NCBI GenBank assembly: GCA_964395275.1
Contig: CAYNBQ010000004.1
Span: 504 to 64,503 of the forward strand
Reading direction: 5' to 3'
Source of the DNA: an uncultured Verrucomicrobiota bacterium
GTDB taxonomy: Bacteria; Verrucomicrobiota; CALLYA01; CAYNBQ01
Length of the DNA stretch: 64,000 bases
Shown: in pieces, positions 8,988 through 64,000 of the stretch
Position numbering within the stretch: the first letter of the stretch is position 1
Layout: each line of letters starts with the position of its first letter
The notes under the pieces: generated by a model
Told to the model about the DNA's origin: nothing
Database searches by the model: none
What the model saw: the letters and a program-made list of their open reading frames with translations, nothing else
Program-made: the position numbers and the translations under genes

Positions 8988-9223
8988 GCGCAATTCCTCC
9001 TTTGTTGAGGGACAACCAGAACCGATGCCCGTCCTTCTCCGACAGGCTCATCGGGAGGCTACTCCCCCCGTTTCCCGAAATCAAGCCCGGAAACCGCCTC
9101 AAATTCCGATGATTATCTTCGACAACTCATTGCAATCATGGAAGTTATGAATATCCTCGGCTCTCCGGGAGCCCTTAGAAGGCCGATTTCGGGTCAAAAT
9201 CGTACCTCTAAGAATGCGAAGAC

Positions 9224-9378: not shown

Positions 9379-10563
9379 TCACCGTCCCAGGGCGAGTCCC
9401 CTGCGGATGTAGGTCGGAACGTCCAGGTCCTGCCCGTCGACGACCGTCGGTTCGGCCTTGTCGAATCGTCCCTTGCTCGGCTCGTCCAGCGGAAAGAGGG
9501 TCGGACTCGGTTCTTCCGGCTGCGCCGCCGCGGCGGCCTCCGTCGACGACGGCTCGGCCCGCCCCTGTGCGGCGCCGGTCGCATACGCGCTCGGGACGGG
9601 TCCCCGCGCCGCGAGCACGGTCACGGAGAAACGCCCGGCGTATTCCTCGTCGATGCCGGCGCCGACGATCGTCAAGGCGTCCGGACGGGCGATCCGGCCG
9701 AGTTCTTCCACCGCGCGATAGACCTCTTCCAGCGCGAGATCGGGACCCCCGACGAAACTCATCAGGATGCGGTCCGCTTCGGAGAGGGCTTCGCCCCGCT
9801 CGAGGAACGGGCTCGACATCAGTTCCGAGATGGCGCCCTGCACCTTGTCCGGATCCCGTCCCTCGGCGCAGACGAAGAAGGTTCCCCCTTCCGCGCCGGC
9901 CAGAACCGTGCGGACATCCGCGAAATCCACGTTGACCAGGCCCGGCTTCGTCAGAAGGCGCCAGATCGCCTGGATCCCGCGGCAGAGGTGCATATCCGCG
10001 ATCCGGAACGCCTCCAGCACGGTCGTTTGGGGGCCGATCGTTCCGAAGAGTTTGTCGTTCGGCACGGAAACCACGGCATCGGCCTTCCCGCGGATCTCGC
10101 CCAGCCCCTGCAGCGCGATGGTCCGGCGCTGTTCGCCTTCGAAGGCGAAGGGTTCGGTCAGAAACGCCACGGTGAGGGCGCCCTGTTCCCGGGCGAGTTC
10201 GGCGACGACCGTCACCGCCCCCGTCCCCGTCCCGCCGCCCAGACCTGCGACGAGAAAGACGATGTCCGCATCCGACAGGAGTTCCCGCAGGCGATCCCGG
10301 TCTTCCTCGGCGGCCTTCCGTCCGCGGACCGGATCGCCGCCCGCGCCCAGTCCCCGGGTTTCCCGCCGGCCGAGCTGGATCTTTTCCGGGGCCATGCATC
10401 CCGCCAGCGCCTGCGCGTCGGTGTTGGCCGCAATGAGCCGGACTCCGGCCATGCCTTCCATCACGAGACGATCGATGATGTTGCATCCCGCACCGCCGAG
10501 CCCGATCACGCGGATCCGGCAGAGCGGTTCGTCGACCCCCTGTTCCTCGCGTCCGTCGCTCAT
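9379..10563 (-). CDS. ftsZ: Cell division GTPase FtsZ
   Basis: Tubulin signature GGGTGTG (LVAGLGGGTGTGA) and the typical FtsZ N-terminus (IRVIGLGGAGCNIIDRL), with an acidic/Pro-rich C-terminal tail. Confidence 0.95.
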   Translation of the reverse strand: MSDGREEQGVDEPLCRIRVIGLGGAGCNIIDRLVMEGMAGVRLIAANTDAQALAGCMAPEKIQLGRRETRGLGAGGDPVRGRKAAEEDRDRLRELLSDADIVFLVAGLGGGTGTGAVTVVAELAREQGALTVAFLTEPFAFEGEQRRTIALQGLGEIRGKADAVVSVPNDKLFGTIGPQTTVLEAFRIADMHLCRGIQAIWRLLTKPGLVNVDFADVRTVLAGAEGGTFFVCAEGRDPDKVQGAISELMSSPFLERGEALSEADRILMSFVGGPDLALEEVYRAVEELGRIARPDALTIVGAGIDEEYAGRFSVTVLAARGPVPSAYATGAAQGRAEPSSTEAAAAAQPEEPSPTLFPLDEPSKGRFDKAEPTVVDGQDLDVPTYIRRGLALGR

Positions 10564-10590
10564 CCCCGTCGCCCTCCTCTCCCGCTCGTC

Positions 10591-11820
10591 TCAGGCCATC
10601 AGGAGATTGCGCACCGCCTGCAGCATGCGGCCGAACCCGCGCTCGCCGGTGCGCCCCCGCGTTTCGATCTGTTGATTCCTCGCATAACGGAGGAGCCCCA
10701 GCGCCGTCGCGCACTCCGGGGCGTTCAGAACGTCCTCGATCCCGTCGAACCGCTGGGCGACGCCGATCTGGGCGGGAAGATGGAAGATCTCCTCGGCCAG
10801 TTCGCGCATCCCCTTCATCCGCGCGCAGCCGCCGGTCAACACGACCCCGGCGCCCGCCGCCGACAGCAGGTGCCTGGCCTCGACGTCCTTGCGGATGATC
10901 TCGAAGATCTCCCGGGCCCGGGCCCAGAGGATCGTGTAGATATCGCGCCGCAGGACGTTGCGCGCCGGGTAGCCGCCCCCGCCGCCGACCCGCACGGCCG
11001 GATCCCTGGCGCCGACCAGGTCGGCGCGCCGGAGATTCCCCTCTTCCTTCTTGAGACGCTCGGCCCGCGGCAACGGGATCTTGAGCCCGATCGCCAGATC
11101 GTTCGAAAGATGGTCCCCGCCGACCGCCAGCACGCCCGTGTGCCGCACGGCCCCCCCCGCGTACACGATGTAATCCGTGGTGCCCGCTCCCAGGTCCAGG
11201 CAGAGAACGCCCCGCTCCTTCTGTTCGGGCGAGAGGACGGCCAGCGAAGAGGCCAGCGAGCCGAGCACGACGTCCTCGACGATCAGGGAAAGTTCGGTCA
11301 CGCAATTCACGCGCGTTTCGATCCGCGACCGCAGTCCGTGCACGATGTGAACCTCGGCCTCGAGCCGCGAGCCGCTCAACCCCCCGGGCCGCAGGGTCGG
11401 ATCGCCGTCGTCCACGCGGAATCCCTGGCGGATCGTGTGCAGGATCTCGTGGTCGGCCGGGATGTTCACGGCCTTCGCGTTCGCCACGGCCTGCTGCATC
11501 ACCGCGGCCGTAACGACCCCTTCCGCGCCGACGGGCGTGGATCCGCGGCTGCCGAACCCGCGGATATGGCTGCCGCTCACCGCGACGTAGACCGACCGGA
11601 TTTCGACCCCGGCCCGGTTTTCCGCGTCGCGCACGGCCCGGTCGAGGGTCTTTCGCGCGGCCTCGAGATCCACGATCTCCCCCTTGCGAACGCCGCCGCT
11701 CTGGGACTCGCCGATCCCGAGCACGGTCAGGGGTCCTTCCGGCGGGGATTCGCCGACCGCCACCCGCACGTGCGACGTTCCGATCTCGACACCGACGAGG
11801 ATCTGATTTCGTTTCTTCAT
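10591..11820 (-). CDS. ftsA: Cell division protein FtsA
   Basis: Actin-like ATPase, SHS2/FtsA family (LVGVEIGTSHVRVAVG… LCLDLGAGTTDYIVY…). Confidence 0.95.
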   Translation of the reverse strand: MKKRNQILVGVEIGTSHVRVAVGESPPEGPLTVLGIGESQSGGVRKGEIVDLEAARKTLDRAVRDAENRAGVEIRSVYVAVSGSHIRGFGSRGSTPVGAEGVVTAAVMQQAVANAKAVNIPADHEILHTIRQGFRVDDGDPTLRPGGLSGSRLEAEVHIVHGLRSRIETRVNCVTELSLIVEDVVLGSLASSLAVLSPEQKERGVLCLDLGAGTTDYIVYAGGAVRHTGVLAVGGDHLSNDLAIGLKIPLPRAERLKKEEGNLRRADLVGARDPAVRVGGGGGYPARNVLRRDIYTILWARAREIFEIIRKDVEARHLLSAAGAGVVLTGGCARMKGMRELAEEIFHLPAQIGVAQRFDGIEDVLNAPECATALGLLRYARNQQIETRGRTGERGFGRMLQAVRNLLMA

Positions 11821-11854
11821 GGCATTCGTCCCTGCGATCGTCTTCGTACCGGGT

Positions 11855-12728
11855 TCAGGCTCCGTTTCGATAGGTCACCGGGACGTTCCGTCCCGAGGTG
11901 AGATCCACCGTCGCCACGCGGCGTCCCCGGTTCCACGATCCGTCGAGGATGACCTCGAGGCGCCGCAGCTGGAGATCGACGCCCTCGGGCTCCATCAGAA
12001 CGGTTTCGCCGCCGGAGAGGTAGAGGGTGAGGCCGTGGCGCGCGGCCAGGTCGATGCATTCCACCCGGACGATGTCGCCCAGGCGCTCGCGCTGCAGGTA
12101 CCGGAGGACCTCCAGGGCCGGCCCGACCCATTCCCCCGGAACCCGTTCGCCGGGCCGAAAGGGGCCGCCGGGCACGCCGGCGATCACCGGCAGCATCCGG
12201 AACACCCGATCGCCGCCGCCGGGGCGCCGCCAGAGGTCCGGATCCAGCACCATTCCGTCGCCCGCGAGAAGGGCACCGTTCTCCGTTCCGATGCGGGCGA
12301 CCGGCAGGCGTTCCCGGACGGAGATCAGCAGCCGGTCGGGCATCTCCCGGCGGACGGTCGCCTCCGCGACGTTCGGGATTTCCTGGAGACGACGGCGAAT
12401 CGCCGCCAGATCCAGCGCCATCAGGTTCCGCCCCGGGGAGATGCCCGTTTCGCGCAGCAGACGATCCCGCGGAATCGTCACCAGACCCGCGATGTCGATT
12501 TCGCGGAGCGTGAACCGCGGGTTCTCGGTCAACAGCGACCGCCGGATCCCCCCGAAACCCCGCGCCACCAGGAATGCGACCAGGGCGACCGTCCCCAGGG
12601 CGAGCAGGCCGGGGGTCAGACGCCGCAGAAACGGTTCCGCGCGGCGGCGCGATCGGTTCCTGGTGCGCACCGTCGCCGGTTTGCGCACCCTGCGGTTTCC
12701 GCGTTTCGCCGTTCGTTTTCTCGGGGAC
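11855..12728 (-). CDS. ftsQ: Cell division protein FtsQ (POTRA domain)
   Basis: TM anchor (LALGTVALVAFLVA) plus POTRA/FtsQ-type domain. The ORF-track N-terminus (to 13501) overlaps ddl. GTG ~12728 sits just after the ddl stop and has a GGGAGGAG RBS. Confidence 0.8.
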
Positions 12729-12735
12729 CCCACCG

Positions 12736-13713
12736 TCAGATCTCCTCCCGGGCGCGGGTTCCGTTCCGCGCCGCCGCCGTCTCGACCAACCGCGAACAAA
12801 GCTCGCGGAACCCCATCCCGGCCTCCGCGGCGGCCATCGGCAGCAGGCTGGTTTCGGTGAATCCCGGCATGGTGTTCATTTCCAGGACGCAGGGTCGGCC
12901 TTCCCGGGTCAGGATCAGATCGACCCGGCCGAGATCCCGGGTCTGCAGCACCTCCCAGGTCGCCAGGGCGGCGGAGCGCACGGCGTCCTGCTGCCGGGAG
13001 TCGAGATCGGCGGGACAGTGGTACTGCGTTCGCCCCTTGGTGTACTTGGAAACGAAATCGAAGACCGGCCCCGGCGGAACGATCTCCACGATCGGCAGGG
13101 TTCGCCCCCCCAGGATTCCGACGGTCAGTTCCCGTCCCTCGAGCCGTTCCTCGACCAGCACGCGGGAATCGTGCGCGAAGGCCTCCCGCAGGGCCGAATC
13201 GAGTTCCCGCGGTTCCCGGACCAGCGTGATCCCGATGCTGGAGCCCTCCCGGCAGGGTTTCACGACCAGGGGCGGTCGGAAGGGAATCGCGTTGCCTCCG
13301 TCCTCCGGACCCAGGACGCACCACCTCGCCGTCGGAATCCCGACCGAGGCCAGGCGGATCTTCGTTTCCTCCTTGTCGAAGGCCGCCGAGCTGGCGCGCG
13401 CATCGCTGCCGACATACGAAAGGCCGGCCGATTCCAGAAGTCGCTGTACGCCGCCGTCCTCTCCGAACCGGCCGTGCAACGCCGGGAAGACCACGTCGCA
13501 ATCGAAGACCTCGGCCGGAAGCCGTTCGTCGTCGATCTCGACGGCGCGAACGCGATACCCGGCGTCGGCGAGCGCCCGGGCGATCGCCCTGCCGGACCGC
13601 AACGAGACCTCCCGTTCCGAGGACGGACCGCCCATCAGGACGGCGACGCGCGCCGCCGCACTCTCCGGATCCCTCGTTCCGGCGTCGTTCGCCTCTCTCC
13701 GCTCGTCAGGCAT
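12736..13713 (-). CDS. ddl: D-alanine--D-alanine ligase
   Basis: ATP-grasp Ddl family (VAVLMGGPSSEREVSLRSG…PLVVKPCREGSSIGIT…EMNTMPGFT). The start overlaps the stop of the murG-murB ORF. Confidence 0.95.
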   Translation of the reverse strand: MPDERREANDAGTRDPESAAARVAVLMGGPSSEREVSLRSGRAIARALADAGYRVRAVEIDDERLPAEVFDCDVVFPALHGRFGEDGGVQRLLESAGLSYVGSDARASSAAFDKEETKIRLASVGIPTARWCVLGPEDGGNAIPFRPPLVVKPCREGSSIGITLVREPRELDSALREAFAHDSRVLVEERLEGRELTVGILGGRTLPIVEIVPPGPVFDFVSKYTKGRTQYHCPADLDSRQQDAVRSAALATWEVLQTRDLGRVDLILTREGRPCVLEMNTMPGFTETSLLPMAAAEAGMGFRELCSRLVETAAARNGTRAREEI

Positions 13714-15880
13714 GCGATCCTCCCCCGCCTCCGGCGCCGGCGCCCCCGGGGACGAGGAATCCGTCCCCTTCCTGCGCGGAAGACTTCGGACCGGCGTCCT
13801 CGCCGAAGACGATCACCTCCGGTTCCAGATCGATCCCGCGGTCCCGTCGGACCGTCCGTCGGATCCGGTCCATCAGCCAGAGAACGTCCGCCGCCGTGGC
13901 GCCTCCGTCGTTCATGATGAAATTCGCGTGGATCTCCGAGACGTGGGCCCCGCCCCGGCGCAATCCCTTCAGACCGAGTTCCTCGATCAGCCGCCCCGCG
14001 GGAATCCCTTCCGGGTTGCGGAAGGTGCACCCCGCCGTTCTTCCCCCGGGCTGACTCTCCCGGCGCCTGCGGCCGAGTTCCTCGAGCCTTGCGAAGATGC
14101 GCTCCGGATCGGCCGGCGTCCCTTCCAGCTCGACGGCCGTCACGCAGGCCTCGCCGAGTCCGTCGCATCCCCGGTAGCGGAACCCCAGCTCGGCCGGGTC
14201 CCGCCAGGCCGGTTCCCGCCCCGGAACGGCGAGCTGCACGCCGCGCAGGACGTCGACCATCTCCGATCCCATCGCGCCGGCGTTCATCCGCACCGCCCCG
14301 CCGACCGTGCCCGGGATCCCCTCGAGAAACTCCAGGCCGCCGATCCCCCATTCCCGGGCGGCCCGGATCACCGCCTTCAGCGACGCCCCGGCCCCGGCCC
14401 GGATCCGGTTTTCGCCCACGCGCTCGATCCGGGTGAATTCCTCCGAGCGCAACCGGACCACGATCCCCCGCACGCCCCCGTCGCGCACGAGCACGTTCGA
14501 ACCATGTCCCAGGAAATAGACCGGCCAGCCGTTTTCCCGCGCCCAGGTCATCACCCGCGAGAGATCCTCCACGGACGCCGGTTCCACGAAGAGATCCGCC
14601 GCGCCCCCGATTCGGAGCCGCGTGTACCGCGCCATCGGTTCGCCGTGACGCACCACGCTGTCCTGCGAAAGAAGCCGGCGCAGATCCCCGGCCGCGTCGC
14701 GGGCCCTCTCGCCGCCGGGAGGATCGGCCGTTTCCGCCGGGGGCGGCGGGGTCGTGCGCAGCGCGCCCCGGGCGGCCGGATCCAGGTACGCCGTGATCCG
14801 TTCAACGACCCGCTCGGCCGCCGACCTCGGATCGGGCCCTTCGGCGAGGGCGCGGGCCATCCGCCGGAGCCGCTCCGGATCCCGCGCCAGGGAAACGATC
14901 CTCTCGGCCAAGCGTTCCGCGTCCAGGTCGTCCGGATCGATCACCACCGCCGCGCCGTTGCGGGCGTGAATCCCGGCGTTGGCATGCTGGTGGCGATCGG
15001 CCGCGTGGGGATAGGGCACCAGGATCGCGGGCGTCCGGGACGCCGCCAGTTCCGCCAGCGTCCCCGCCCCGGCCCGCGACACGACCAGGTCGGCCGCCGC
15101 GTAGATCCGCCCCATCCGATCCTCGAACTCGATCACCCGGAACCGGCCGGGACGGCCTTCCGCCCCCGTTTCGTGCGCCGGAGCCTTCCCGTGGCCGGCA
15201 AGAAGAATCATGACCGTCCCGGACTCCTTTTCCCGGATCTTTTCGAACGCGTCCCGGGCCGCCCGGTTCAGTTCCTCGGCGCCCTGGCTGCCGCCGATCA
15301 CCGCGATGACGAAGGCGTCCGGATCGAGCCCGAGGGATCGACGCGCCTGCGCCCGATCGACGTTGAAGATCTCCCGGCGCACCGGGATCCCCGTGACCCG
15401 GGAGCGGGCGCCGCCGAGGGGGGGCGACGTCTCCGGCCATCCCAGGAGGACCTCTTCGGCGCCCCGGGCCAGCCATCGGTTCGCGCGTCCGGGGACGGCG
15501 TTGGCCTCGTGGAGAAGAAGCGGGATCCTGCGTCTTCGGGCGGCCAGCGCCGGTACCAGCGTGGGGAATCCTCCCATCGCCAGAAGCACCCGGACATCCC
15601 TCTCCCGCAGCCGGTCGCCGAACCGTCCGGCCTCGATCCAGAGGTTCCAGGCGAACGCGGCAAGTCCCGGCCCCGGCCGCGAAGGCGGTCTGCGCGAGGG
15701 CGCGCGAACGGGCGTCAGCCATTCCGGCAACGACCGCGCCAGGCGTCGGTCGCGCTCGGAATCTCCCGTGCAGAGAAGGACCTCGATCCCGCGCTCGCGC
15801 AACCGTTCGGCGACGGCCACCGCGGGGAAGAGATGTCCCCCGGTGCCGCCCGCCGCGATCGCCGCCGTGCCGTGTGCCAT
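13706..15880 (-). CDS. murG-murB: Fused MurG (UDP-GlcNAc:lipid I GlcNAc transferase) and MurB (UDP-N-acetylenolpyruvoylglucosamine reductase) in one 724-aa ORF
   Basis: N-terminal ~370 aa is MurG (GGTGGHLFPAVAVAERL, GT28 family). C-terminal ~310 aa is MurB (FAD-binding YTRLRIGGAADLF… through the C-terminal substrate domain). No stop codon separates the two parts, and no RBS-preceded internal start is visible. Confidence 0.85.
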   Translation of the reverse strand: MAHGTAAIAAGGTGGHLFPAVAVAERLRERGIEVLLCTGDSERDRRLARSLPEWLTPVRAPSRRPPSRPGPGLAAFAWNLWIEAGRFGDRLRERDVRVLLAMGGFPTLVPALAARRRRIPLLLHEANAVPGRANRWLARGAEEVLLGWPETSPPLGGARSRVTGIPVRREIFNVDRAQARRSLGLDPDAFVIAVIGGSQGAEELNRAARDAFEKIREKESGTVMILLAGHGKAPAHETGAEGRPGRFRVIEFEDRMGRIYAAADLVVSRAGAGTLAELAASRTPAILVPYPHAADRHQHANAGIHARNGAAVVIDPDDLDAERLAERIVSLARDPERLRRMARALAEGPDPRSAAERVVERITAYLDPAARGALRTTPPPPAETADPPGGERARDAAGDLRRLLSQDSVVRHGEPMARYTRLRIGGAADLFVEPASVEDLSRVMTWARENGWPVYFLGHGSNVLVRDGGVRGIVVRLRSEEFTRIERVGENRIRAGAGASLKAVIRAAREWGIGGLEFLEGIPGTVGGAVRMNAGAMGSEMVDVLRGVQLAVPGREPAWRDPAELGFRYRGCDGLGEACVTAVELEGTPADPERIFARLEELGRRRRESQPGGRTAGCTFRNPEGIPAGRLIEELGLKGLRRGGAHVSEIHANFIMNDGGATAADVLWLMDRIRRTVRRDRGIDLEPEVIVFGEDAGPKSSAQEGDGFLVPGGAGAGGGGGSHA

Positions 15881-15896
15881 CTCGATCCGCCTCTCC

Positions 15897-17039
15897 CTAC
15901 AGGGTCGGAGTCCGATCCGTCAGCGCCAGGGGCATCGCGTCGGCCAGTTCCCCCGAGGCGTGCCGGTAGATGTTGATGAGGATCCCCACCGAAGCGAGGT
16001 TCACCACCAGGTTCGATCCGCCGAAACTGATGAAAGGCAGCGGCAGGCCCTTCGTCGGAAGCAGCCCGGTCACCACCCCCATGTTGATGAACGCCTGCAG
16101 GCCGATCAGCAGGGTCACGCCCAGCCCGAGCAGGCTCATGTAGAGATCTCCCGAGCGGAAGCTGACCCAGAGGGCGGCCAGGAAGAAACAGACGAAAAGG
16201 GTCACCACCACCAGCGTCGCCACCAGGCCGAGTTCCTCGCCGATGATCGGGAAGATGAAGTCCGTGTGCGCCTCCGGCAGGTAGAACATCTTCTGGCGGC
16301 TGCCCGCCAGTCCCAGGCCGTAGATTCCCCCCGAGCCGAAGGCGAGAATGGCCTGCTTGACCTGGTAGCCGGCGGTCTGTCCGTAGGCGTCCAGGTCGAG
16401 GAACGCCAGCATGCGTCCCATGCGCACGGGGTCCCGGAGGATCGCCAGCGCGAACGCGCCGGCCCCCGCCAGGATCGTCGGCACCAGGTAGATCAGGCGC
16501 GTTCCGGCCACGAACATCATCGTGAACGCCACCGCCGCCAGCAGGGCGCTGGTCCCGTAGTCGGGTTCCAGGAAGATCAGGAAGACGACGGCGCCGGTGA
16601 CGGCCATCGGAACGAGGAAGCCGTGGACGAACCGCTGGATCCGGCGCTGGTCCCAGGCCAGCCGATGGGCCAGGAAAAAGACGAGGGCCAGTTTCGCCGG
16701 TTCCGAGGGCTGAAACCGCAGCGATCCCATGCCGATCCACCGGCGCGCCCCGTTCACCAGGGTGCCGATCGACGGGTGCAGCGTGGCGGCCAGCAGCCCG
16801 ATCGCCCCGAGCAGGAAGAAGGGGCTCAGCCGCCGCAACCCGTGAACGTCCACGCGCATCGCCGCCAGCAGGGCGACGATGCCGATGACGATCCACAGGA
16901 GCTGCCGTTTCAGGAAATGATAGCTGTCGCCGAACCGCTGCTGCGCGAACGGGGCGCTGGTGCTGTAGAGCATGACGACCCCGAACGCCACGAAGAGCAG
17001 CGTGATCGTGATGACGACGACGGCCGACAGATGCGTCAT
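15897..17039 (-). CDS. ftsW: SEDS-family peptidoglycan glycosyltransferase FtsW
   Basis: Ten-TM FtsW/RodA/SpoVE family (…GLPLPFISFGGSNLVVN…). Confidence 0.9.
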   Translation of the reverse strand: MTHLSAVVVITITLLFVAFGVVMLYSTSAPFAQQRFGDSYHFLKRQLLWIVIGIVALLAAMRVDVHGLRRLSPFFLLGAIGLLAATLHPSIGTLVNGARRWIGMGSLRFQPSEPAKLALVFFLAHRLAWDQRRIQRFVHGFLVPMAVTGAVVFLIFLEPDYGTSALLAAVAFTMMFVAGTRLIYLVPTILAGAGAFALAILRDPVRMGRMLAFLDLDAYGQTAGYQVKQAILAFGSGGIYGLGLAGSRQKMFYLPEAHTDFIFPIIGEELGLVATLVVVTLFVCFFLAALWVSFRSGDLYMSLLGLGVTLLIGLQAFINMGVVTGLLPTKGLPLPFISFGGSNLVVNLASVGILINIYRHASGELADAMPLALTDRTPTL

Positions 17040-17053
17040 GCCCCGCGTCTCCC

Positions 17054-18013
17054 TCAGCGGATCGGAACCCGGATCGCGTCGAAGTCGCCGACCTCGTCCG
17101 CGCTCTGGAGCTCGTTCAGCTTCAGCAACACCTCCACGGTGGTGTTGTACTGTTTCGCGACGTCCTCGAGGGTTTTGCCCGGTTCCATGAACGTCAGCGT
17201 CGTTTCGGTCGCCTCGACCTCCGCAGCCGTTTCCTTTGCGGGCGCGGGGGTCGTCTCGGCCCCGGTCCCGCCCGCCGGGGTCGACGGCACGTCTTCGACC
17301 GGTTCGACCGCCGGTTCCGCGGCCGGTTCCGCGGGCGCCGCGCCGGGGATGATCAGTTCCTGGCCGGGATGGAGCAGGTCGCTGGTCAACCCGTTCGCCT
17401 CCCGGATGGCGTCGATGGTGGTCCCGTGGCGGCGGGCGATCGTCCAGAGGTTGTCGTTGGGTTGCACGACGTACTTGCCCCCGGCGGAGACGGCCGGCGC
17501 CGTCGTCGGTGCGGAGGGGGCCGCCGGCGCCGACGCCTTCGGCGCGGGTTTCGGGGCGGGTTTGGGCGCCGGCACGCTCCGGGCGCCGGCGGGGATGACG
17601 ATCTTCTGTCCCACAATGATCTTCGAATCCTCGCTAAGCCCGTTGCGGGCGAGCACCTGGCTCATGGAAATGCCGTAGCGCTGCGAGATCCCCCAGATCG
17701 TGTCGCCCTTCTGGACGATGTAGACCTGTTCCCCGGCGGCCGGCACCGTCGAGGGCCGGCGCGTGGTCGTCGGCCGCGGCGCCACCCGGACGTCTTCCGG
17801 CCGGATCCGCGGCGCGGGACGGGTGGTGCGCGCCGGCGGGATCGTCGTGGTGGTCGGGGGCGGCGGCGGCACCCGGTGATCGATTCGCGCCGGCGGCGGG
17901 GGTTGACTGATGACCTCGACGCCCCGGGTCCGGCATCCGCCGATGAACAGGACCATGCAGACCAGGAGCACATGCATCACCACGACGACTACGAACACCC
18001 TCGTCAGTTTCAT
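17054..18013 (-). CDS. Membrane-anchored protein with three LysM (peptidoglycan-binding) domains
   Basis: N-terminal TM, a Pro/Thr-rich spacer, then three LysM repeats (YIVQKGDTIWGISQRYGISMSQVLARNGL; YVVQPNDNLWTIARRHGTTIDAIREANGL; a degenerate third). It occupies the position murD normally has between mraY and ftsW. Confidence 0.85.
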   Translation of the reverse strand: MKLTRVFVVVVVMHVLLVCMVLFIGGCRTRGVEVISQPPPPARIDHRVPPPPPTTTTIPPARTTRPAPRIRPEDVRVAPRPTTTRRPSTVPAAGEQVYIVQKGDTIWGISQRYGISMSQVLARNGLSEDSKIIVGQKIVIPAGARSVPAPKPAPKPAPKASAPAAPSAPTTAPAVSAGGKYVVQPNDNLWTIARRHGTTIDAIREANGLTSDLLHPGQELIIPGAAPAEPAAEPAVEPVEDVPSTPAGGTGAETTPAPAKETAAEVEATETTLTFMEPGKTLEDVAKQYNTTVEVLLKLNELQSADEVGDFDAIRVPIR

Positions 18014-18086
18014 TTTCTTCGCCCCTCCCGCGCCCTGTCGCGCATTCCCCGGCCGGTGCGCCTCGCGCGCGCAGCCGGCGGGTGTT

Positions 18087-19220
18087 TCAGCGCAGCTTCA
18101 GCGTTCCGAGGCCGAGCAGCGCAAACAGAATCGATAAGATCCAGAACCGGACGACGACCTTCGTCTCCGGAATCCCTCCCAGCACGAAATGATGGTGGAT
18201 CGGCGCCATGCGGAAGATCCGCACCCCGCGGCTGCGGAACGAACCGACCTGCAGGATCACCGAGACCGCCTCGATCACGAAGACCCCGCCGACGATCGGC
18301 AGGGTCAACTCCTGCCGGATGAGAATCGCCACGATCCCGACCCCGCCCCCCAGCGCGAGGCTGCCCGTGTCGCCCATGAAGATCTCGGCCGGCGCCGCGT
18401 TGAACCAGAGAAACCCCAGCCCGGCGCCGAGCAGGGCCGCGCAGAAGATCGTCAGTTCCCCGGCGCCCGGCATGTAGGGAACCAGCAGGTACGACGACAG
18501 CTTCGCGTTGCCCGCGACGTAGCTGAGCAGGGCGTAGGCCATCGAGGCGGTGATGCCCGTGCCGATGGCCAGCCCGTCGAGCCCGTCGGTGAGGTTCGCG
18601 GCGTTGGAACTCCCCACCAGGATGAATCCGAAGAAGGGCAGCGCCAGCCACCCGAGATCGAGCACCGGGCGTTTCAGGAACGGCACCATCAGTTGCGTGT
18701 AGGAGACGTCGCCGGGGGTGCGCCACCCGATCAGCACCCAGCCGGCGGCGATCCCGATGCCGATCTCCAGCAGCATCTTCGTGCGGGCCCGGATCCCCCC
18801 GGTGTCCCGGCGGCGCACCTTCGACAGGTCGTCGAAGAAACCGAGCACCGCCAGGGCAAGCGTCACGGCGAGGGCCATGGCCGCGTAGCGGTTGTCCCAG
18901 GGGACCCAGAGGATCGTGCTCAACACGAGGCTGCCGACGATCAGCACCCCGCCGAACGTCGGGGTCCCTTCCTTGGCCGCATGAAACCGCTCGAGTTCCC
19001 GGAAATGATCCCCGGAGCGCTGCGGCTGGCTCGCGTCCCGCCGACGCAACCGCCGGATGAAGGGCGGCCCGAAGACGAGGGTGAGGAGCAGCGCCGTGAT
19101 CGCGGCGCCCGTCGCGCGAAACGTGATCGACTGAAAGACCCGCAGCGGGCTGAGAAACTCCGCCAGCCGGGGCATCGTCGAACGCAACGCTCCGGGAATG
19201 AGATGAACGTAATAGAACAC
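18087..19220 (-). CDS. mraY: Phospho-N-acetylmuramoyl-pentapeptide transferase MraY
   Basis: MraY/WecA family motifs (NAANLTDGLDGLA, MGDTGSLALGG, HHHFVLGG). Confidence 0.95.
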   Translation of the reverse strand: MFYYVHLIPGALRSTMPRLAEFLSPLRVFQSITFRATGAAITALLLTLVFGPPFIRRLRRRDASQPQRSGDHFRELERFHAAKEGTPTFGGVLIVGSLVLSTILWVPWDNRYAAMALAVTLALAVLGFFDDLSKVRRRDTGGIRARTKMLLEIGIGIAAGWVLIGWRTPGDVSYTQLMVPFLKRPVLDLGWLALPFFGFILVGSSNAANLTDGLDGLAIGTGITASMAYALLSYVAGNAKLSSYLLVPYMPGAGELTIFCAALLGAGLGFLWFNAAPAEIFMGDTGSLALGGGVGIVAILIRQELTLPIVGGVFVIEAVSVILQVGSFRSRGVRIFRMAPIHHHFVLGGIPETKVVVRFWILSILFALLGLGTLKLR

Positions 19221-19227
19221 GGTTCAT

Positions 19228-20664
19228 TCAGCCTCGTCGGTTCTCCAGTTCCGGGACCAGGGCCTCCAGGATCGCCTCCGGCTGCGCCCCGCGCGATCCC
19301 TTGATCAACACGGCGTCGCCCGGGACCATCTCGTCCAGGAGACGTCGGGCCGCCTCCCGGTTCGTCTCCACGGCCTCGGCGCGCAGCGCGCTTCCCGAGA
19401 CGCCGGCGCTCTCGGCCGCCGCCCGGGCCGCCCCCACCGCCAGCAGCCAGTCGACGCCCAGCAGCGCCGCCTGCCGCCCGACCCGCCGATGCCATTCGTC
19501 CGCCCCGGGCCCCAGCTCGAGCATCTCGCAGACGACCGCGATCCGCCGTCCCGCCACCGGCAGCTCCGACAGCGTCCGCAGGGCCGATTCCATCGATTGC
19601 GGATTGCTGTTGTAACAGTCCGCGTAGATCGTGACCCCCCCGACGGTCCGGATGTCCGACCGCAGGGCCGGCAGGGTCGCCCGCGCGATTCCGTCCAGGT
19701 ACGATTCGATCGGCACCTCGAAATGATGTCCCACCGCCGCCGCCGCCAGGGCGTTCAGGATGTTGAACCGCCCCGGATACGGCAGGTGCACCCGCGTGGT
19801 CGTTCCGTCGGGCAGATGGAGGAGGAAACTCGACATCTCCCAGTTCATCTCCACGCGGGAGGCGCGGAACTCCGCCCGGCGATCGAAGCCGAAACTCAAC
19901 ACCGGCGCCCCGGCGCGCCCGAAGAAATACGCGAACCAGTCGTCGTCGTACGGAAGAACCGCCGCGCCCTCCGGCGGCAGATGGCGGATGGCCGTCGATT
20001 TCTCGCGCGCCACGCCTTCTTCGTCGCCGAAGAACTCCAGGTGCGCCGGACCGACCCCCGTGATCACCGCCAGGTCCGGGCGGCAGATCTCCACCAGCGC
20101 GGCGAGTTCGCCGGGGTGATTCGTCCCGGCCTCGATCACCGCGTATTCCTCGTCGACCAGCTCCAGCAGAGTCAGCGGCACGCCGATCTCGTTGTTCCGG
20201 TTGCCCCGCGTCTTGAGAACGTGGCCGACCGTCCCGAGAACGGAGGCGGTGAACTCCTTCGTGGTCGTCTTGCCGCAACTGCCGGTCACCAGCACCACCC
20301 GCACGTCGCATGACCGGCGGTGGGCCGCCGCCAGCCGCTGCATCGCGCGCAGCGGATCGTCCACCACGTAGAAGGGCAACGCGCGCGGCAGGTCCGCCGC
20401 CCGGGAACGATCGACCACCGCCGCGGCCGCACCCGCCTCCGCGGCTTCCAGCAGGTAGTCGTGCCCGTCGAACCTCGGTCCGCGCAGCGCCACGAAGAGG
20501 TCGCCCGGGCGAAGCGTCCGGGTGTCGATGCTGATCCCCCGGACCGGCTGCCGGACCGTTCCCTGCAGATCCCCCTCCAGCCGGTCGGCGAGCGTCTGCG
20601 CATCCTGCGCCCATGTCGGCATCCGTTTTCTCGAAGCCCCCCTGCGTTGGTCCACCGCTCTCAT
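19228..20664 (-). CDS. murF: UDP-N-acetylmuramoyl-tripeptide--D-alanyl-D-alanine ligase MurF
   Basis: Mur ligase with VTGSCGKTTTKE and the MurF-type GNRNNEIGVPLTLL motif. Start is ATG 20664 (AGGGAG RBS) or the ATG at 20685 that overlaps the ftsI stop (ATGA). The ORF-track N-terminus (to 21927) overlaps ftsI and is spurious. Confidence 0.9.
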   Translation of the reverse strand: MRAVDQRRGASRKRMPTWAQDAQTLADRLEGDLQGTVRQPVRGISIDTRTLRPGDLFVALRGPRFDGHDYLLEAAEAGAAAAVVDRSRAADLPRALPFYVVDDPLRAMQRLAAAHRRSCDVRVVLVTGSCGKTTTKEFTASVLGTVGHVLKTRGNRNNEIGVPLTLLELVDEEYAVIEAGTNHPGELAALVEICRPDLAVITGVGPAHLEFFGDEEGVAREKSTAIRHLPPEGAAVLPYDDDWFAYFFGRAGAPVLSFGFDRRAEFRASRVEMNWEMSSFLLHLPDGTTTRVHLPYPGRFNILNALAAAAVGHHFEVPIESYLDGIARATLPALRSDIRTVGGVTIYADCYNSNPQSMESALRTLSELPVAGRRIAVVCEMLELGPGADEWHRRVGRQAALLGVDWLLAVGAARAAAESAGVSGSALRAEAVETNREAARRLLDEMVPGDAVLIKGSRGAQPEAILEALVPELENRRG

Positions 20665-20681
20665 CATTTCACCCGCTCCCT

Positions 20682-22463
20682 TCATTTCAAGGCCAGCTTC
20701 AAGTTTTCCCTGGCAGGGGGAATCCCGAGGTATTTCATGATCCGATAGGCGATCTCCCGGAAGATCGGCGCGGCGGTCTTCCCGCCGTACATGGAGGTCC
20801 TGGGCTCGTCGAGAACGACCACGATGCAGACGACCGGGTTCTGCGCCGGAACGAACCCGACGAACGAGGCGACGTGCCGGGTGCGCGAATACCGGCCGTC
20901 GACCAGCTTCTGGCTGGTGCCGGTCTTGCCCGCCACCGGATAGCCCCGCAGGGCGGCGGCCTCGGCCGTCCCCTCGGCGGAGGCAACCCGCATCATCGGA
21001 CGCAGCATCAGCGCCGCGGTCCGCTCGTCGATCACCCGCCGGATCGGCTTCGGAGGATAGGTCCGCAACACCCGTTCGTCCGGATCGCGCAGTTCCCGCA
21101 CGATCCGCGGCTGCATCAGGATCCCCCCGTTCGCCACCGCCGAGAAGGCCATGGCCATTTGCAGCGGGGTGACGTCCACCTCGTGTCCCATCGGAATCCG
21201 GGTGATGGAAATCCCCGACCACCGGGAAACCGGATGCAGCATGCCGGCCACCTCGCCCGGCAACTGGACGCCGGTCTTCGCCCCGAAGCCAAACCGCCGC
21301 AGGTAGTCGTACAGGCGCCGCGCCCCGAGCCGCAACGCGATCTTGGCCGCCCCGATGTTGCTCGAATGCACCAGGATGTCTTCCGCACTGAGCATCCCGT
21401 AGCTGTGGTGATCGTGCAGGATCCGGCGGTTGTAGAGAAAATAGCCGTTCTCGCAGTCGAACTGCTGATCCAGGGTCACCACCCCGTCGTTGAGCGCCGC
21501 GGCCAGGGTGAAGACCTTGAACGTCGAACCGGGCTCGTAGCGGTCCGTGATGGCCCGGTTCCGGCGGGCCTCCGCCGGGGAAGCGCCCGGGGCGTTCGGA
21601 TCGAACGCCGGCCGGTTGGCCATCGCCAGGATCTCGCCGGTGCGCGGATCGACGACCACGACCGTCCCCGCGCGCGGACCGTGTTCCTCCATGCCGAGGT
21701 CGAGCTCGGTCTCCACGATGTGCTGGATGACCTCGTCGATCGTCAGCACCACCGTGCAGCCGTTGCGGGCCTCGACGTGGGCGGCGCGGCTCGGCAGGAT
21801 TTCCCGGCGCAGCCGGTCGCGCTCCGTCACCGTCCAGCCGGGCAATCCCTGGAGCGGATCGTCCATCGCCAGCTCGATCCCCTCCACCCCGCGCTGCTTG
21901 TAATCCACGAACCCCAGCACGTGGCACAACGCGACGCCCTGGGGGTAGACCCGGACCGGTTCCTGCCGGAAGAAGAGCCCCGGCAGTCCCAGATCCCGGA
22001 TCCGTTCGGCCTCCTCCGGATCCATCCGGCGTTTCACGTAGACGAAGCGCCGGCCGCTCGTCAGGCGCCGTTCCAGAAGATCCCGGTCGACGTCCAGCTC
22101 TTCCGAAAGCCGGGCGGCCATCGCCAGGGCCTGCTCGCGGCTCAGTTGCGACGGATCCGCGCAGAGCGTCTCGGCCACCCCCGAGATCGCCAGAACCTGT
22201 TCGTTCCGATCGAGAATATGACCCCTTCTCGCACGAGTTTCCTGGATCGTTCGGCGCGTTCGATTCGCCTCGGCGAGAAGGGGTTCATGTTGGAGGGCTT
22301 GGAGGGTGATGAGTTTCGCGCCGACCGAGATGAAAGCCGCCAGTACGGCCAGGGCAACCAGCGCGGCCCGGATGCGGTGTGCGGGGCGGAGGCCCGATTG
22401 AATTCGGATTCCATCGGACGATCTGCCTTTCGATCTTCCGCCTGCACCAGTTCTCCGGGCCAC
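20682..22463 (-). CDS. ftsI: Peptidoglycan D,D-transpeptidase FtsI (PBP3-like class B PBP)
   Basis: TM anchor, PBP dimer domain and transpeptidase motifs (STFK, SSN, KTGT). Confidence 0.9.
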   Translation of the reverse strand: MARRTGAGGRSKGRSSDGIRIQSGLRPAHRIRAALVALAVLAAFISVGAKLITLQALQHEPLLAEANRTRRTIQETRARRGHILDRNEQVLAISGVAETLCADPSQLSREQALAMAARLSEELDVDRDLLERRLTSGRRFVYVKRRMDPEEAERIRDLGLPGLFFRQEPVRVYPQGVALCHVLGFVDYKQRGVEGIELAMDDPLQGLPGWTVTERDRLRREILPSRAAHVEARNGCTVVLTIDEVIQHIVETELDLGMEEHGPRAGTVVVVDPRTGEILAMANRPAFDPNAPGASPAEARRNRAITDRYEPGSTFKVFTLAAALNDGVVTLDQQFDCENGYFLYNRRILHDHHSYGMLSAEDILVHSSNIGAAKIALRLGARRLYDYLRRFGFGAKTGVQLPGEVAGMLHPVSRWSGISITRIPMGHEVDVTPLQMAMAFSAVANGGILMQPRIVRELRDPDERVLRTYPPKPIRRVIDERTAALMLRPMMRVASAEGTAEAAALRGYPVAGKTGTSQKLVDGRYSRTRHVASFVGFVPAQNPVVCIVVVLDEPRTSMYGGKTAAPIFREIAYRIMKYLGIPPARENLKLALK

Positions 22464-22475
22464 CGTCGGCCCTCC

Positions 22476-22865
22476 CTATCGCAGTTGCGCCAGCCGTGTT
22501 TGTTCTTCTTCGATCACGTTGCCCACCGGTTCCCAGACCAGCACCGTGTGCGCGTCGTCCGGGACCCGGAGATCCAGCCCGAACTCGCGAAGTTTCCGAT
22601 CGAGGCTCCGCGGGGATTCCAGGGTGAAGACGCGCGCCTGGTTTCGCGTGTTCGTCTCCCGCCAGGTCTCCAGTTCCCGGTTCAGGTTCTGGATCTCCAG
22701 ACCCAGCTGGTAGGCCTCGTTGACCAGCCAGACGTAGGCGAGTGCGACCAACGCGCCGCCCCCCAGCAGGAGCCCGAGACGGGTCATCAACCGCCCCCGT
22801 ACCACGGATCCGCTCCGGGCGCGGGAGGTCCTACGCGAACGCCGACTCGATCTTTGCCGCGTCAT
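22476..22865 (-). CDS. ftsL: Cell division protein FtsL-like (small bitopic coiled-coil protein)
   Basis: Position between rsmH and ftsI. One TM (LGLLLGGGALVALAYVWLV) followed by a coiled-coil-like segment. The real start may be internal (~22787), since 22865 overlaps rsmH. Confidence 0.55.
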   Translation of the reverse strand: MTRQRSSRRSRRTSRARSGSVVRGRLMTRLGLLLGGGALVALAYVWLVNEAYQLGLEIQNLNRELETWRETNTRNQARVFTLESPRSLDRKLREFGLDLRVPDDAHTVLVWEPVGNVIEEEQTRLAQLR

Positions 22866-23874
22866 CGATCATCGCCTCCGTCGGTTCCCCGATCTTTTCC
22901 GCCACTCGAAACCGCGCGCTTCTCGCACGCGGGTTGTCCCTCAGTTCCGCCTCCCCCGGCTTCACCGCCCGCCGGGTGCGCCGGAGGAACGCCGGCGACC
23001 GCCCGCAAACGCAGACCGGCGATTCCGGTCCGCAGATGCAAGGGCTCTCCATCCTCGTCATGAAGCGCTTCACCATCCTGTCCTCGAGGCTGTGATACGC
23101 GATCACCCCCAGCCGTCCCCCGGTGGCCAGCCGGCATGCCGCCGCGGCCAGCGCGCGGGACAACGATCCCAGTTCGTCGTTGACGGCGATCCGCAGGGCC
23201 TGGAAGACCCGCGTGGCCGGATGCCGGCGCCCCCGCCGGGGCGAAACCGATTCGACCAGCTCCGCCAGCTGCCGGGTCGTCTCGATCGGCTTCTTCTCCC
23301 GGGCGCGGACGATCGCCGCGGCGATCCTTCCGGCGGCCGGTTCCTCCCCGTAGCGCCGGAGAATCCGCGCGATTTCCCGGCGGTCCCATTCGGCCAGCAG
23401 CTCCCGGGCGGGCCGTCCCCGGTCCGGGTCGAACCGGAGATCCAGCGGCCCGTCCCGCAGGAACGAGAAGCCGCGCGAGGGGTCGTCCACGTGGATCGAA
23501 CAGAGACCCAGGTCGAGCAGGATGCCGTCGACCCGGTCCAGGCCGATCTCCGAGAGGATCGCGGCCAGATCCCCGAAATCCCCCCGCACCAGGCGCAGCC
23601 TGGGTTCGACCCCTTCCAGCGCGAAGCGCGCAAGATCCAACGCCCCCGGATCCAGATCGATCCCGACCAGGACCCCGCCGGTCCCCAGCCGTTCGGCCAG
23701 GGCCCGCGCATGGCCGCCGGCCCCCAGGGTGCCGTCGACGAATCGCTCTCCCGGCCGCGGAGCGAGAAGCTCCACGACCTCGGCGAGCAGGACTGGTTTG
23801 TGAAAGATCGTCCCCGTGCCGCCCTCGCCGGCGACCGTCCCCGCCCGACCGCATGGGCGGCCTCCCATTTCCAT
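22831..23874 (-). CDS. rsmH: 16S rRNA (cytosine1402-N4)-methyltransferase RsmH (MraW)
   Basis: HKPVLLAEVVELL…VDGTLGAGGHA SAM-binding region and a conserved C-terminal region. Start uncertain within the first ~10 codons. Confidence 0.9.
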   Translation of the reverse strand: MEMGGRPCGRAGTVAGEGGTGTIFHKPVLLAEVVELLAPRPGERFVDGTLGAGGHARALAERLGTGGVLVGIDLDPGALDLARFALEGVEPRLRLVRGDFGDLAAILSEIGLDRVDGILLDLGLCSIHVDDPSRGFSFLRDGPLDLRFDPDRGRPARELLAEWDRREIARILRRYGEEPAAGRIAAAIVRAREKKPIETTRQLAELVESVSPRRGRRHPATRVFQALRIAVNDELGSLSRALAAAACRLATGGRLGVIAYHSLEDRMVKRFMTRMESPCICGPESPVCVCGRSPAFLRRTRRAVKPGEAELRDNPRARSARFRVAEKIGEPTEAMIDDAAKIESAFA

Positions 23875-23883
23875 CCCCCCGTC

Positions 23884-24315
23884 TCAGATCCCCAGCTGCC
23901 GCGCCGTCTCCTCGAACCCGGGACGGCGCATCTCTTCGAGTTCCGCGAAACGCCGGGGATCCCAGATTTCGAACTGGTTGATCAACCCGACGAGCAGGAC
24001 TTCCCCATCAAGCCCGGCGTGCTGGATATGCTCGCGGCTCAGCGTCATCCGTCCCTGCCCGTCGCAACGGGTCGACTCCATCTGGGAGCCGTAGAGACGG
24101 ATGAAGTCCCAGCGTTCCGCGTCCCCGAGTTTCAACGAGTCCAGCTTCTCGTAGATCCGTTGAATCCCCTCCGGAGGCATGACGGTGAGCGATGCGCGTC
24201 CGACGGTGGGCACGACGAACAATTCGCGGTCCTCGTCGGGTTTCGGACGCCACTTGGGCGGGAGAACGATGCGATGGTTCCCGTCGATCCCGCGAAGGAA
24301 CCGTCCGGCGAACAC
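23884..24315 (-). CDS. mraZ: Transcriptional regulator MraZ
   Basis: Duplicated MraZ fold (FAGRFLRGIDGNHRIVLPPKWR… / …GRMTLSREHIQHAGLDGEVLLVG). GTG start at 24315, with GGGAGG ~10 nt upstream. The ORF-track start at 24393 is probably too long. Confidence 0.8.
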   Translation of the reverse strand: MFAGRFLRGIDGNHRIVLPPKWRPKPDEDRELFVVPTVGRASLTVMPPEGIQRIYEKLDSLKLGDAERWDFIRLYGSQMESTRCDGQGRMTLSREHIQHAGLDGEVLLVGLINQFEIWDPRRFAELEEMRRPGFEETARQLGI

Positions 24316-24591
24316 GCGCCGTATCCCTCCCCCCGGCCTCCATGGCGCACCAGCTTCCACCATATTCCTCCAAATCGCCCCATTTCCTACCAAACCCCGC
24401 CAGACCGTGTCAACGCTCCTCCATCACTTTTCCCCGAAATTTTCCGGCCCCCAAAATCCCCCCGACCCCGTTTCCAGGGTTGCCTTCCACCCCCGCCTTT
24501 CCCACCCTACCCGCTGCCGATCGCCCCGGACACCGGTCCAACCCGGCCCCGGTCGCACCGGCCTTGCGGAACCACAGGAGGAATCCATCCG

Positions 24592-29538: not shown

Positions 29539-29761
29539 CGTCGCACCTCCACATTTCCACCGCGCGCTCGCCGCGCCTCCGCTCCGGATCCCCCGCGACC
29601 GCGGCCCGTTCGGTGCGGCGGCCCGCCGGGCCGCGGCATTCTATCCGATCCCGGGAGCGGCTCCAACGCCGACCGCGTCGGGTCCGCTTGCGATTCCCCG
29701 GGCATGGGCTATTGGTTTCTTTCCGGGCGATCCGCCCGCCGCAGCCGGAGGATACGAAACC

Positions 29762-35937: not shown

Positions 35938-36046
35938 AAGGCGCGGACGGCCCCCTTTCCCGCCGTCCCCGGCGGGGAAGAATCCCTCGCGTTCGTGGTA
36001 CGGCGGCCTATAATCCGGCGACGGAGCCGGGCTCCGGGGAGAAACG

Positions 36047-36799
36047 ATGTCGACAGCCCTCCTGATGATCCATCCAGTGAATCTGCCGCCGTTGGCCGCC
36101 GGGCTTTCCTATGCCTGGAGGGAATCGGGGCTCTACAGCAAGGCCATCATCATCCTGCTCTTTCTCGGCTCGATGTTCGCGTGGTCGGTCATGATCAACA
36201 AGGGACTGTCCCTGCGGCATGCGAAACGGGAGGCCCGGAGGTTTCTCCGTTTCTATCGTTCGCACAAGGAACCCCTGGCGGCGTACGTGCAGAAGTTCCA
36301 TGCCACCGAATGCCCCCTGCTGGAGGTCTACCGGGCGGGGGCGAAGGAAGCCGTCCGGCAACTCGGCGGCGACACGGACCGGGGCGCGGAACTCTTCGCG
36401 GAGAACCGGATTCCCGAGGGACGGCTCGACGTCGGCCAGATCGACCGGATCCAGGACGCGGTGGACCGCGAGATCAACACGCAGAGCCTCATCCTGGAGT
36501 CGTACCTCGGGGCGTTGGCGACGGCCGTGAGCGCCGGGCCGCTGATGGGACTGCTCGGAACCGTCTGGGGGATCATGGACGCCTTCGGCGCGATGGCCGT
36601 GGTGGGAACCGCCACGATCTCCGCCGTCGCCCCCGGGATCAGCGGCGCCCTGATCACGACGGTGATCGGGCTGCTCGTGGCGATCCCGTCGTTGATCGGA
36701 TACAACGTTCTGATCCACCACGTCGAACGCCAGACGGTGGAGATCGAGAACTTCGCGACCGAATTCGTGGCCGCCCTGGAAACTCGGTACAAACGGTAG
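36047..36799 (+). CDS. tolQ: Tol-Pal system protein TolQ (MotA/TolQ/ExbB proton channel)
   Basis: Three-TM MotA/TolQ/ExbB family (…AVSAGPLMGLLGTVWGIMDAF…). It is first in the tolQRAB-pal gene order. Confidence 0.85.
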   Translation: MSTALLMIHPVNLPPLAAGLSYAWRESGLYSKAIIILLFLGSMFAWSVMINKGLSLRHAKREARRFLRFYRSHKEPLAAYVQKFHATECPLLEVYRAGAKEAVRQLGGDTDRGAELFAENRIPEGRLDVGQIDRIQDAVDREINTQSLILESYLGALATAVSAGPLMGLLGTVWGIMDAFGAMAVVGTATISAVAPGISGALITTVIGLLVAIPSLIGYNVLIHHVERQTVEIENFATEFVAALETRYKR

Positions 36800-36811
36800 G
36801 GGCCTACGGCG

Positions 36812-38010: not shown

Positions 38011-38011
38011 T

Positions 38012-60490: not shown

Positions 60491-60543
60491 ACGGACGCGG
60501 CGGGCGATCGGGGCGAGTTCCACGGGGGGAGCCGGCACGTCTC

Positions 60544-62370: not shown

Positions 62371-62436
62371 CACCCCCGGGGGCTGGCCCTAGCTTTCATC
62401 CTCAGGGTCCCATTCCGCCGCGCGGGCCCGCATTCT

Positions 62437-62442: not shown

Positions 62443-62465
62443 AGTGGGGGTGTGTCTCCGTTACA

Positions 62466-64000
<1,535 letters not shown>

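Follow-up and report, generated by a model that had tools for sequence, protein, structure and literature searches.

A dcw cluster without murC, murD and murE in an uncultured Verrucomicrobiota bacterium, and a LysM-domain gene kept directly before ftsW

The division and cell wall (dcw) gene cluster of an uncultured Verrucomicrobiota bacterium was analysed in a 64 kb stretch of its genome (contig CAYNBQ010000004.1, positions 504 to 64,503; hereafter the window), in which the gene order on the minus strand, 24393 to 9379, is mraZ-rsmH-ftsL-ftsI-murF-mraY-LysM-ftsW-murG/murB-ddl-ftsQ-ftsA-ftsZ in Pfam and NCBIfam scans. The ligase genes murE, murD and murC are missing from this order, and a gene for a protein with three LysM domains lies between mraY and ftsW. 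The LysM gene has a slot of its own, directly before ftsW and after murD, and in the Verrucomicrobiota and Kiritimatiellota loci sampled it belongs to the core of the operon as a lineage-specific gene; the pairing of LysM and ftsW is therefore ancestral, and what was deleted is the murD that preceded the LysM gene. The LysM protein is most likely a membrane-anchored, peptidoglycan-binding partner or accessory of the FtsW/FtsI septal synthase with an FtsN-like layout. The locus as a whole is best explained as a single, tightly packed and eroded dcw operon of the Verrucomicrobiota/Kiritimatiellota type, and we hold this explanation, taken jointly with the mechanism proposed for the LysM protein, to be moderately probable.

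The position of the LysM gene was surveyed in species-representative GTDB genomes anchored on FtsW, and each locus was mapped by tblastn and with a LysM profile. The survey covered loci with sequence upstream of ftsW from outside the Lentisphaeria and Planctomycetota, and with best identities of 46–50% it contained no close relative of the window. A LysM open reading frame (ORF) was directly upstream of ftsW in 37 loci, i.e. L001, L002, the unlabelled L018, and all 34 assessable loci labelled as Verrucomicrobiota or Kiritimatiellota (labels Verrucomicrobiota, Opitutales, Kiritimatiellia or similar). The corresponding count was 0 of 40 in loci of other phyla, including one Chlamydiae and one Omnitrophota metagenome-assembled genome, and in these 40 the mraY-to-ftsW gap of about 1.4 kb equals murD alone. 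LysM domains were confirmed by Pfam in the divergent versions of Verrucomicrobiaceae, Akkermansia and Chthoniobacteraceae, and the LysM-to-ftsW spacer was estimated at about 69 nt in the median and at most about 122 nt. The pair was kept in clusters with a break before or after it (Pontiella L038, L051, L018 and the P0005 contig). The closest LysM homologues, 48% and 44% identical over their full length, stood in the arrangement mraY-LysM-ftsW-murG/B-ddl-ftsQ-ftsA-ftsZ (L001, L002).

The original prediction, made from the letters of the window, had assigned the LysM gene to the murD slot, and the gene does lie exactly between mraY and ftsW, the usual place of murD. A recent insertion or replacement at that position, or alternatively a multi-ligase hidden behind the MurF call, is nevertheless highly improbable. 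In canonical clusters the orthologues are found between murD and ftsW: the contig of P0005 (37% identity, 97% coverage) reads mraZ-x-rsmH-ftsL-ftsI-murE-murF-mraY-murD-LysM-ftsW, Prosthecobacter L085 reads rsmH-ftsL-ftsI-murE-murF-mraY-murD-LysM-ftsW-murG, and the orthologues of L083 and L086 take the same place. Because orthologues keep their own slot directly before ftsW and after murD, the LysM gene did not replace murD; the assignment to the murD slot is refuted by these synteny data, including all 34 assessable loci of the survey. Replacement is further contradicted by L087 (GCA_040960315.1), in which a fragment at 4766-4918, between mraY and the LysM gene, matches MurD residues 384–434 only (the last ca. 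50) and is a C-terminal remnant of a murD deleted in situ.

The second part of that alternative fails on the MurF protein itself, which contains one stretch each of PF01225, PF08245 and PF02875 as well as the motif GNRNNEIGVP. It scored 384.9 bits with the MurF model TIGR01143 (cut-off 288.6), against 102 bits for murE (cut-off 257), 66 bits for murC and 47 bits for murD, all far below their cut-offs. With a single N-M-C domain set, and with the MurF model alone above its cut-off, a hidden multi-ligase was ruled out and the earlier call of a single-ligase MurF was upheld.

The G+C content of the window is about 68%, hence raw ORF lists were noisy, and genes were picked by codon-position G+C and then checked against Pfam and NCBIfam. 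The resulting collinear block, all on one strand with mraZ-rsmH-ftsL-ftsI at its start and ftsQ-ftsA-ftsZ at its end (9379-24393), is that of a dcw cluster and repeats the gene order read originally; murE, murD and murC are absent from their canonical positions, MurF being the sole ligase:

23884-24393, minus strand: mraZ (PF02381 MraZ, E=1.6e-13), the true start of which may be nearer 24315
22831-23874, minus strand: rsmH (mraW) (PF01795, 329.8 bits)
22476-22865, minus strand: ftsL-like gene, 129 aa, placed by its position between rsmH and ftsI and by a basic N-terminus, a transmembrane segment and a coiled coil
20682-22463, minus strand: ftsI, PBP3-type transpeptidase (PF00905, 275.6 bits; PF03717)
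19228-20685, minus strand: murF, sole Mur ligase of the window (TIGR01143, 384.9 bits, cut-off 288.6)
18087-19220, minus strand: mraY (TIGR00445, 360.3 bits, cut-off 192)
17054-18013, minus strand: triple-LysM protein, predicted to be membrane-anchored, 319 aa (PF01476 in three stretches, 141.6 bits)
15897-17039, minus strand: ftsW, SEDS glycosyltransferase (PF01098, 333 bits)
13706-15880, minus strand: murG-murB fusion, 724 aa (TIGR01133 and PRK13905/TIGR00179; Pfam)
12736-13713, minus strand: ddl (PF07478, PF01820)
11855-12760, minus strand: ftsQ, start approximate (PF08478 POTRA_1, PF03799)
10591-11820, minus strand: ftsA (PF14450, PF02491)
9379-10563, minus strand: ftsZ (PF00091, PF12327)

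The FtsL-like protein of 129 aa gave no match in the Pfam and NCBIfam scans. At the ftsI-murF junction, stop and start share the letters ATGA, and murF begins either at this ATG or at the ATG at 20667; mraY and the LysM gene are 73 nt apart, and the 14 nt between the LysM gene and ftsW include GGGAG ahead of the ftsW start. Since the junctions are this tight, they leave no room for ligase remnants, in agreement with the earlier statement that large gaps and pseudogene remnants are missing at the ligase positions. From mraY to ftsZ, L001 and L002, which are independent assemblies from the window's own clade, agree with the window in gene order. This agreement, together with the tight, in-frame junctions, led to the rejection of an assembly artefact. 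An Rfam scan of the window returned no matches, and the promoter and terminator scans stayed at chance level.

For the three missing ligases, tblastn over the whole 64 kb used MurE and MurD queries of Prosthecobacter (L085) and a MurC query of the Opitutia genome L006 and found nothing except cross-matches on murF, and in family scans the remaining large ORFs were not Mur ligases either. That the cluster is without murE, murD and murC, as claimed originally, thus holds in both profile scans and the 64-kb search. MurB, MurF, MraY, MurG, Ddl, FtsW and FtsI are all intact in the window, so the peptidoglycan pathway must be in use. On the 64 kb seen, the simplest account is that the genome presumably encodes murC, murD and murE at other sites, and a precedent for relocation is provided by Verrucomicrobium spinosum, in which murB and murC are outside the dcw cluster (PMC1845146).

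That the organism truly lacks MurC, MurD and MurE and makes UDP-MurNAc-tripeptide otherwise, e.g. with an Mpl-type ligase and scavenged tripeptide, would agree with the failure to find the three genes in 64 kb and with a second lineage, L088, of the same cluster content, but is scarcely credible. The seven intact enzymes named above reach the scores of genuine family members, mur genes are known to have been relocated within the same superphylum (PMC1845146), the stepwise loss from the cluster in relatives, including a remnant, fits redundancy with a copy elsewhere, and the genome was seen only in small part.

The ancestral order in Verrucomicrobiota and Kiritimatiellota is mraZ-rsmH-ftsL-ftsI-murE-murF-mraY-murD-LysM-ftsW-murG-murC-murB-ddl-ftsQAZ. 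In the lineage of the window murC, murD and murE were taken out of the cluster, and the removal of murC was accompanied by an in-frame fusion of murG and murB. The relatives that bear this fusion form a graded series of ligase loss. L083/L084 and L086 have the murG/B fusion and keep murE and murD, with murC and also ddl lost; L087 has the fusion and keeps murE, with murC lost and murD represented by the fragment described above; in the window all three ligases are gone, and its close relative L001 is the same from mraY to ftsZ. As L001 ends inside mraY, the comparison with it covers the cluster downstream of the ftsI-murF junction. L088 (GCA_964458575.1, 2109-18870) has exactly the gene content of the window, without murE, murD and murC, and represents a distant lineage (40–48% protein identity, 62% G+C) in which murG and murB are separate, overlapping genes. 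The Opitutae locus L075 is independently without murD and murC, and murD is absent also from L025 and L035 (non-PVC labels, PVC standing for the Planctomycetes-Verrucomicrobia-Chlamydiae superphylum) and from L060 (unclassified bacterium). In view of the graded relatives, L075, and L025, L035 and L060, loss of ligases from the cluster is recurrent and stepwise. A metagenome scan with MurF returned nothing above 38% identity.

The fragmented dcw clusters of PVC bacteria, e.g. that of V. spinosum, where murCB is separate from the mraW cluster, are alike in that Mur ligase genes have moved out while the rest stayed collinear (PMC1845146, PMC12283558); the window differs from them in that murC, murD and murE are all missing, yet mraZ to ftsZ is one uninterrupted operon. 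The graded loss of the three ligase genes, together with the murD remnant and the rare MurG-MurB chimera, makes a clean natural series, which shows the most conserved bacterial gene cluster coming apart while functional.

A gene of about 187 aa without Pfam match was present between mraZ and rsmH in the P0005 contig and in L088 (L088:2576-3139). In the window mraZ adjoins rsmH, with no such gene between them.

The murG/murB of the original prediction proved to be one fused ORF, with profiles for both halves. The MurG half (aa 7-354) scored 232.3 bits with TIGR01133, below the cut-off of 250.25, with both GT28 Pfam domains above threshold, and the MurB half (aa 407-695) scored 315.3 bits with PRK13905 against 259 and matched TIGR00179. 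The usual place of murC is between these two halves. The same fusion was found in independent assemblies (P0122-P0129), and it is rare: of 5.8 billion proteins, about 10 sequence clusters carry it, and the same search yielded a single MurG-MurC-MurB triple chimera (P0130). MurG-MurB is absent from the chimera types listed in a 2023 survey of natural Mur chimeras (PMC10214165). As in the natural chimeras MurC-MurB of Verrucomicrobia, MurG-MurC of Actinobacteria and MurE-MurF, adjoining dcw genes are fused into one polypeptide; the window differs in joining two genes, murG and murB, that are normally parted by murC.

The LysM protein had originally been described as a membrane-anchored triple-LysM protein inside the operon, which agrees with the three PF01476 stretches and the predicted N-terminal helix:

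17942-18007, minus strand: N-terminal hydrophobic helix, aa 3-24, with conserved His14 and followed by Gly26-Cys27 (FIGGC) (alignments A1/A2; AlphaFold2, AF2)
17591-17728, minus strand: LysM domain 1, aa 96-141 (Pfam; AF2 predicted local distance difference test, pLDDT, >90)
17345-17479, minus strand: LysM domain 2, aa 179-223 (Pfam, best stretch 181-223; AF2 pLDDT >90)
17063-17203, minus strand: LysM domain 3, aa 271-317, divergent (third PF01476 stretch; AF2 pLDDT >90)

PF01476 was above its gathering score, and the AF2 model on alignment A2 had the helix at 3-24 and strand-helix-helix-strand LysM folds at 96-140, 179-222 and 271-317 (pLDDT >90), with disordered linkers between; the predicted template modelling score of 0.32 points to a beads-on-a-string arrangement of the LysM domains. 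A PDB sequence search returned generic LysM proteins only. On the basis of alignments A1 and A2, the family N-terminus reads MKxxKxFGxVxxxHV...GC, and His14, Gly26 and Cys27, all present in the window, are each found in at least 90% of family members. The helix with its His and Gly-Cys is followed by a disordered, Pro-rich, low-complexity linker and by 1–3 LysM domains; in the window's protein the Pro-rich disordered spacer has about 70 residues and the predicted cytoplasmic tail 5 residues. The Verrucomicrobiaceae homologues (P0244-P0354) are without the Cys, and their cytoplasmic tail, about 45 aa long, is highly conserved (MKTKKSKKDSLIIKLIDGDRHKHRVALVTDEGEWNQHEPNTGMARMF); in P0070, P0077, P0096 and P0108 a conserved tail of 20–30 aa of the NPLIPQGSLLEQK type is combined with QGC. 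Such lineage-specific conserved tails are a hint of cytoplasmic partners.

The LysM ORFs of Opitutae (L006, L009, L010, L016, L040, L046, L052, L058, L064 and L075) carry an extra acidic C-terminal tail with the conserved ending PVI(R/K)(V/L)(D/E). This tail is missing from the LysM protein of the window.

The proposed function is based on operon membership, strict ftsW adjacency, the conserved membrane helix and the periplasmic LysM modules. The protein would be made together with FtsW and held by its helix in the inner membrane beside the FtsW-FtsI synthase, and its LysM domains would bind septal glycan strands in the periplasm, thereby stabilising, positioning or activating septal wall synthesis or coupled hydrolases. 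Its predicted layout for this role is a short cytoplasmic N-terminus, one helix with a near-invariant His and ending in Gly-Cys, a spacer, and the three LysM domains as beads on a string.

In E. coli, the divisome activator FtsN is bitopic and N-in: a short cytoplasmic part and a single transmembrane helix are joined by a long, Pro-rich, disordered linker to a peptidoglycan-binding module at the C-terminus. FtsN is tied to FtsW/FtsI function and restricted to one lineage, and the LysM family, in its predicted layout, would resemble it in these points. The LysM family differs in having 1–3 LysM domains in place of SPOR, in that no FtsN essential-helix motif was identified, and in the position of its gene inside dcw beside ftsW, when ftsN is located elsewhere. 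The septal hydrolase regulators DipM of Caulobacter and NlpD/EnvC would resemble it in being periplasmic factors guided to septal peptidoglycan by several LysM domains, and NlpD has, in addition, a lipobox followed by a disordered linker, to which the lipobox-like FIGGC and the Pro-rich linker may correspond; the LysM protein is without their LytM/M23 domain, and dipM, nlpD and envC are not in dcw. Neither the SPOR domain, the mark of FtsN, nor LytM/M23 (PF01551), that of DipM, NlpD and EnvC, was matched in the LysM protein by Pfam and NCBIfam, and the DipM models gave 76.6 bits (cut-off 740) and 36.6 bits (cut-off 900). Of the original comparison to an FtsN-, DipM- or EnvC-type divisome factor, the divisome part agrees with synteny and architecture, whereas the SPOR and LytM/M23 domains are absent. 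By its domain content and model scores, the LysM protein is not assignable to the FtsN, DipM/NlpD or YneA families.

YneA/ChiZ-type division inhibitors have the layout predicted for the LysM protein, a single transmembrane helix and a LysM domain, and act on division; the YneA model NF010723 gave 53.9 bits, just under its cut-off of 60. This score came from the LysM domain alone, and membership in the YneA family was rejected. YneA-type genes are SOS-regulated and outside dcw. YneA and ChiZ are small and damage-induced, whereas the window's protein, with three LysM domains, is encoded by a constitutive member of the core operon, embedded directly before ftsW in at least the two lineage groups sampled, and its putative V. 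spinosum counterpart, placed by locus-tag order, is probably essential. An inhibitor role is accordingly very hard to sustain.

The evidence for essentiality comes from transposon-directed insertion-site sequencing of V. spinosum, in which VSP_RS19445 scored essential with an insertion index of 0.016 (PMC12283558, Data S5; the gene is not discussed there). In locus-tag order, VSP_RS19445 falls between ftsW and the murD gene VSP_RS36300, itself listed between RS19435 and RS19455, and in Prosthecobacter, of the same family, the LysM homologue is the sole gene between murD and ftsW. By this order and the Prosthecobacter synteny, the LysM gene is probably essential in V. spinosum.

A different function would follow if the protein were a lipoprotein, cleaved and lipidated at Cys27 and perhaps in the outer membrane, which would make it an envelope tether or an NlpD/DipM-like organiser of septal hydrolases and not a partner of FtsW/FtsI. 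The Gly-Cys at the helix end is at least 90% conserved; the FIGGC of the window and the xQGC variants fit the classical PROSITE-type lipobox rule, [LVI][ASTVI][GAS]C (checked by eye and by script); the layout of lipobox, disordered linker and LysM is like that of NlpD; and DipM was among the best partial NCBIfam matches. On the other side, the conserved helix with its invariant His is unusual for a cleaved signal peptide, the Verrucomicrobiaceae have a conserved 45-aa cytoplasmic tail and no Cys while other groups combine a 20–30-aa tail with QGC, and a LytM/M23 domain is missing. In Opitutae a Pro at position -2 gives xPGC, which does not fit the lipobox rule. For the window's protein itself, the AF2 model has helix 3-24 and the conserved cytoplasmic tails of relatives favour an uncleaved anchor, and the lipobox-like FIGGC leaves room for cleavage. 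The helix is probably an N-in transmembrane anchor rather than a lipoprotein signal, and the lipoprotein function is a minority possibility that we consider unlikely.

Several observations nevertheless weigh against the LysM protein as an FtsW/FtsI partner in an eroded operon. As FIGGC fits the lipobox, the mature protein could be a lipoprotein, possibly of the outer membrane, and with a cytoplasmic tail of 5 residues an FtsN-like contact with FtsA is unlikely in the window. The essential call of VSP_RS19445 could reflect polarity on ftsW and murG, and V. spinosum was not among the best 120 matches listed in the homologue search, where matches were Prosthecobacter-like only. The whereabouts of murC, murD and murE are presumed from the 64 kb of genome seen.

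How members of the PVC superphylum divide is an open field, and some of them lack FtsZ. To our knowledge no PVC member has a recognised FtsN, and the role of an FtsN-type activator or anchor is there without known occupant. The LysM protein could be taken further as an essential divisome subunit of Verrucomicrobiota and Kiritimatiellota, the His-helix docking FtsW/FtsI and the LysM domains sensing septal glycan, which would fill the place taken by FtsN in proteobacteria; this is a doubtful extension that we offer only tentatively. A wall-binding membrane protein that is encoded directly before ftsW throughout the lineages sampled, and is probably essential in V. spinosum, makes a concrete candidate for a divisome component specific to these lineages, and since V. 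spinosum offers targeted mutagenesis, the candidate is testable now.

The searchable literature gave no description of a LysM family upstream of ftsW, and no paper joining LysM, ftsW, murD and dcw. The dcw surveys of PVC bacteria that were examined looked for canonical genes only (PMC1845146, PMC12283558), and the public annotation of the homologues is just "LysM peptidoglycan-binding domain-containing protein". The family directly before ftsW is apparently an undescribed, lineage-wide dcw gene. The window is otherwise a variant of what is already known, namely erosion of the dcw cluster, chimeric Mur proteins and division factors with LysM domains.

Outside the cluster, a FlgD_ig-domain protein (7293-9047, minus strand) is encoded directly downstream of ftsZ, and L001 has the same neighbour after ftsZ. 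About 1.3 kb upstream of mraZ and on the same strand is an ORF of about 1,328 aa (25654-29640, minus strand) with a weak DUF5696 match only. A Tol/Ton-like block extends on the plus strand over 36014-39226, perhaps to 40128, with ExbB/TolQ at 36014-36799, a TonB_2-domain protein at 37174-38010 and a TolB-like PD40 beta-propeller at 37823-39226; the small ORF at 36800-37222 (plus strand) takes the usual position of ExbD and was placed by position alone. The plus strand of 60379-63998 carries dnaG and then rpoD, the usual macromolecular-synthesis pair, with rpoD cut by the window end.

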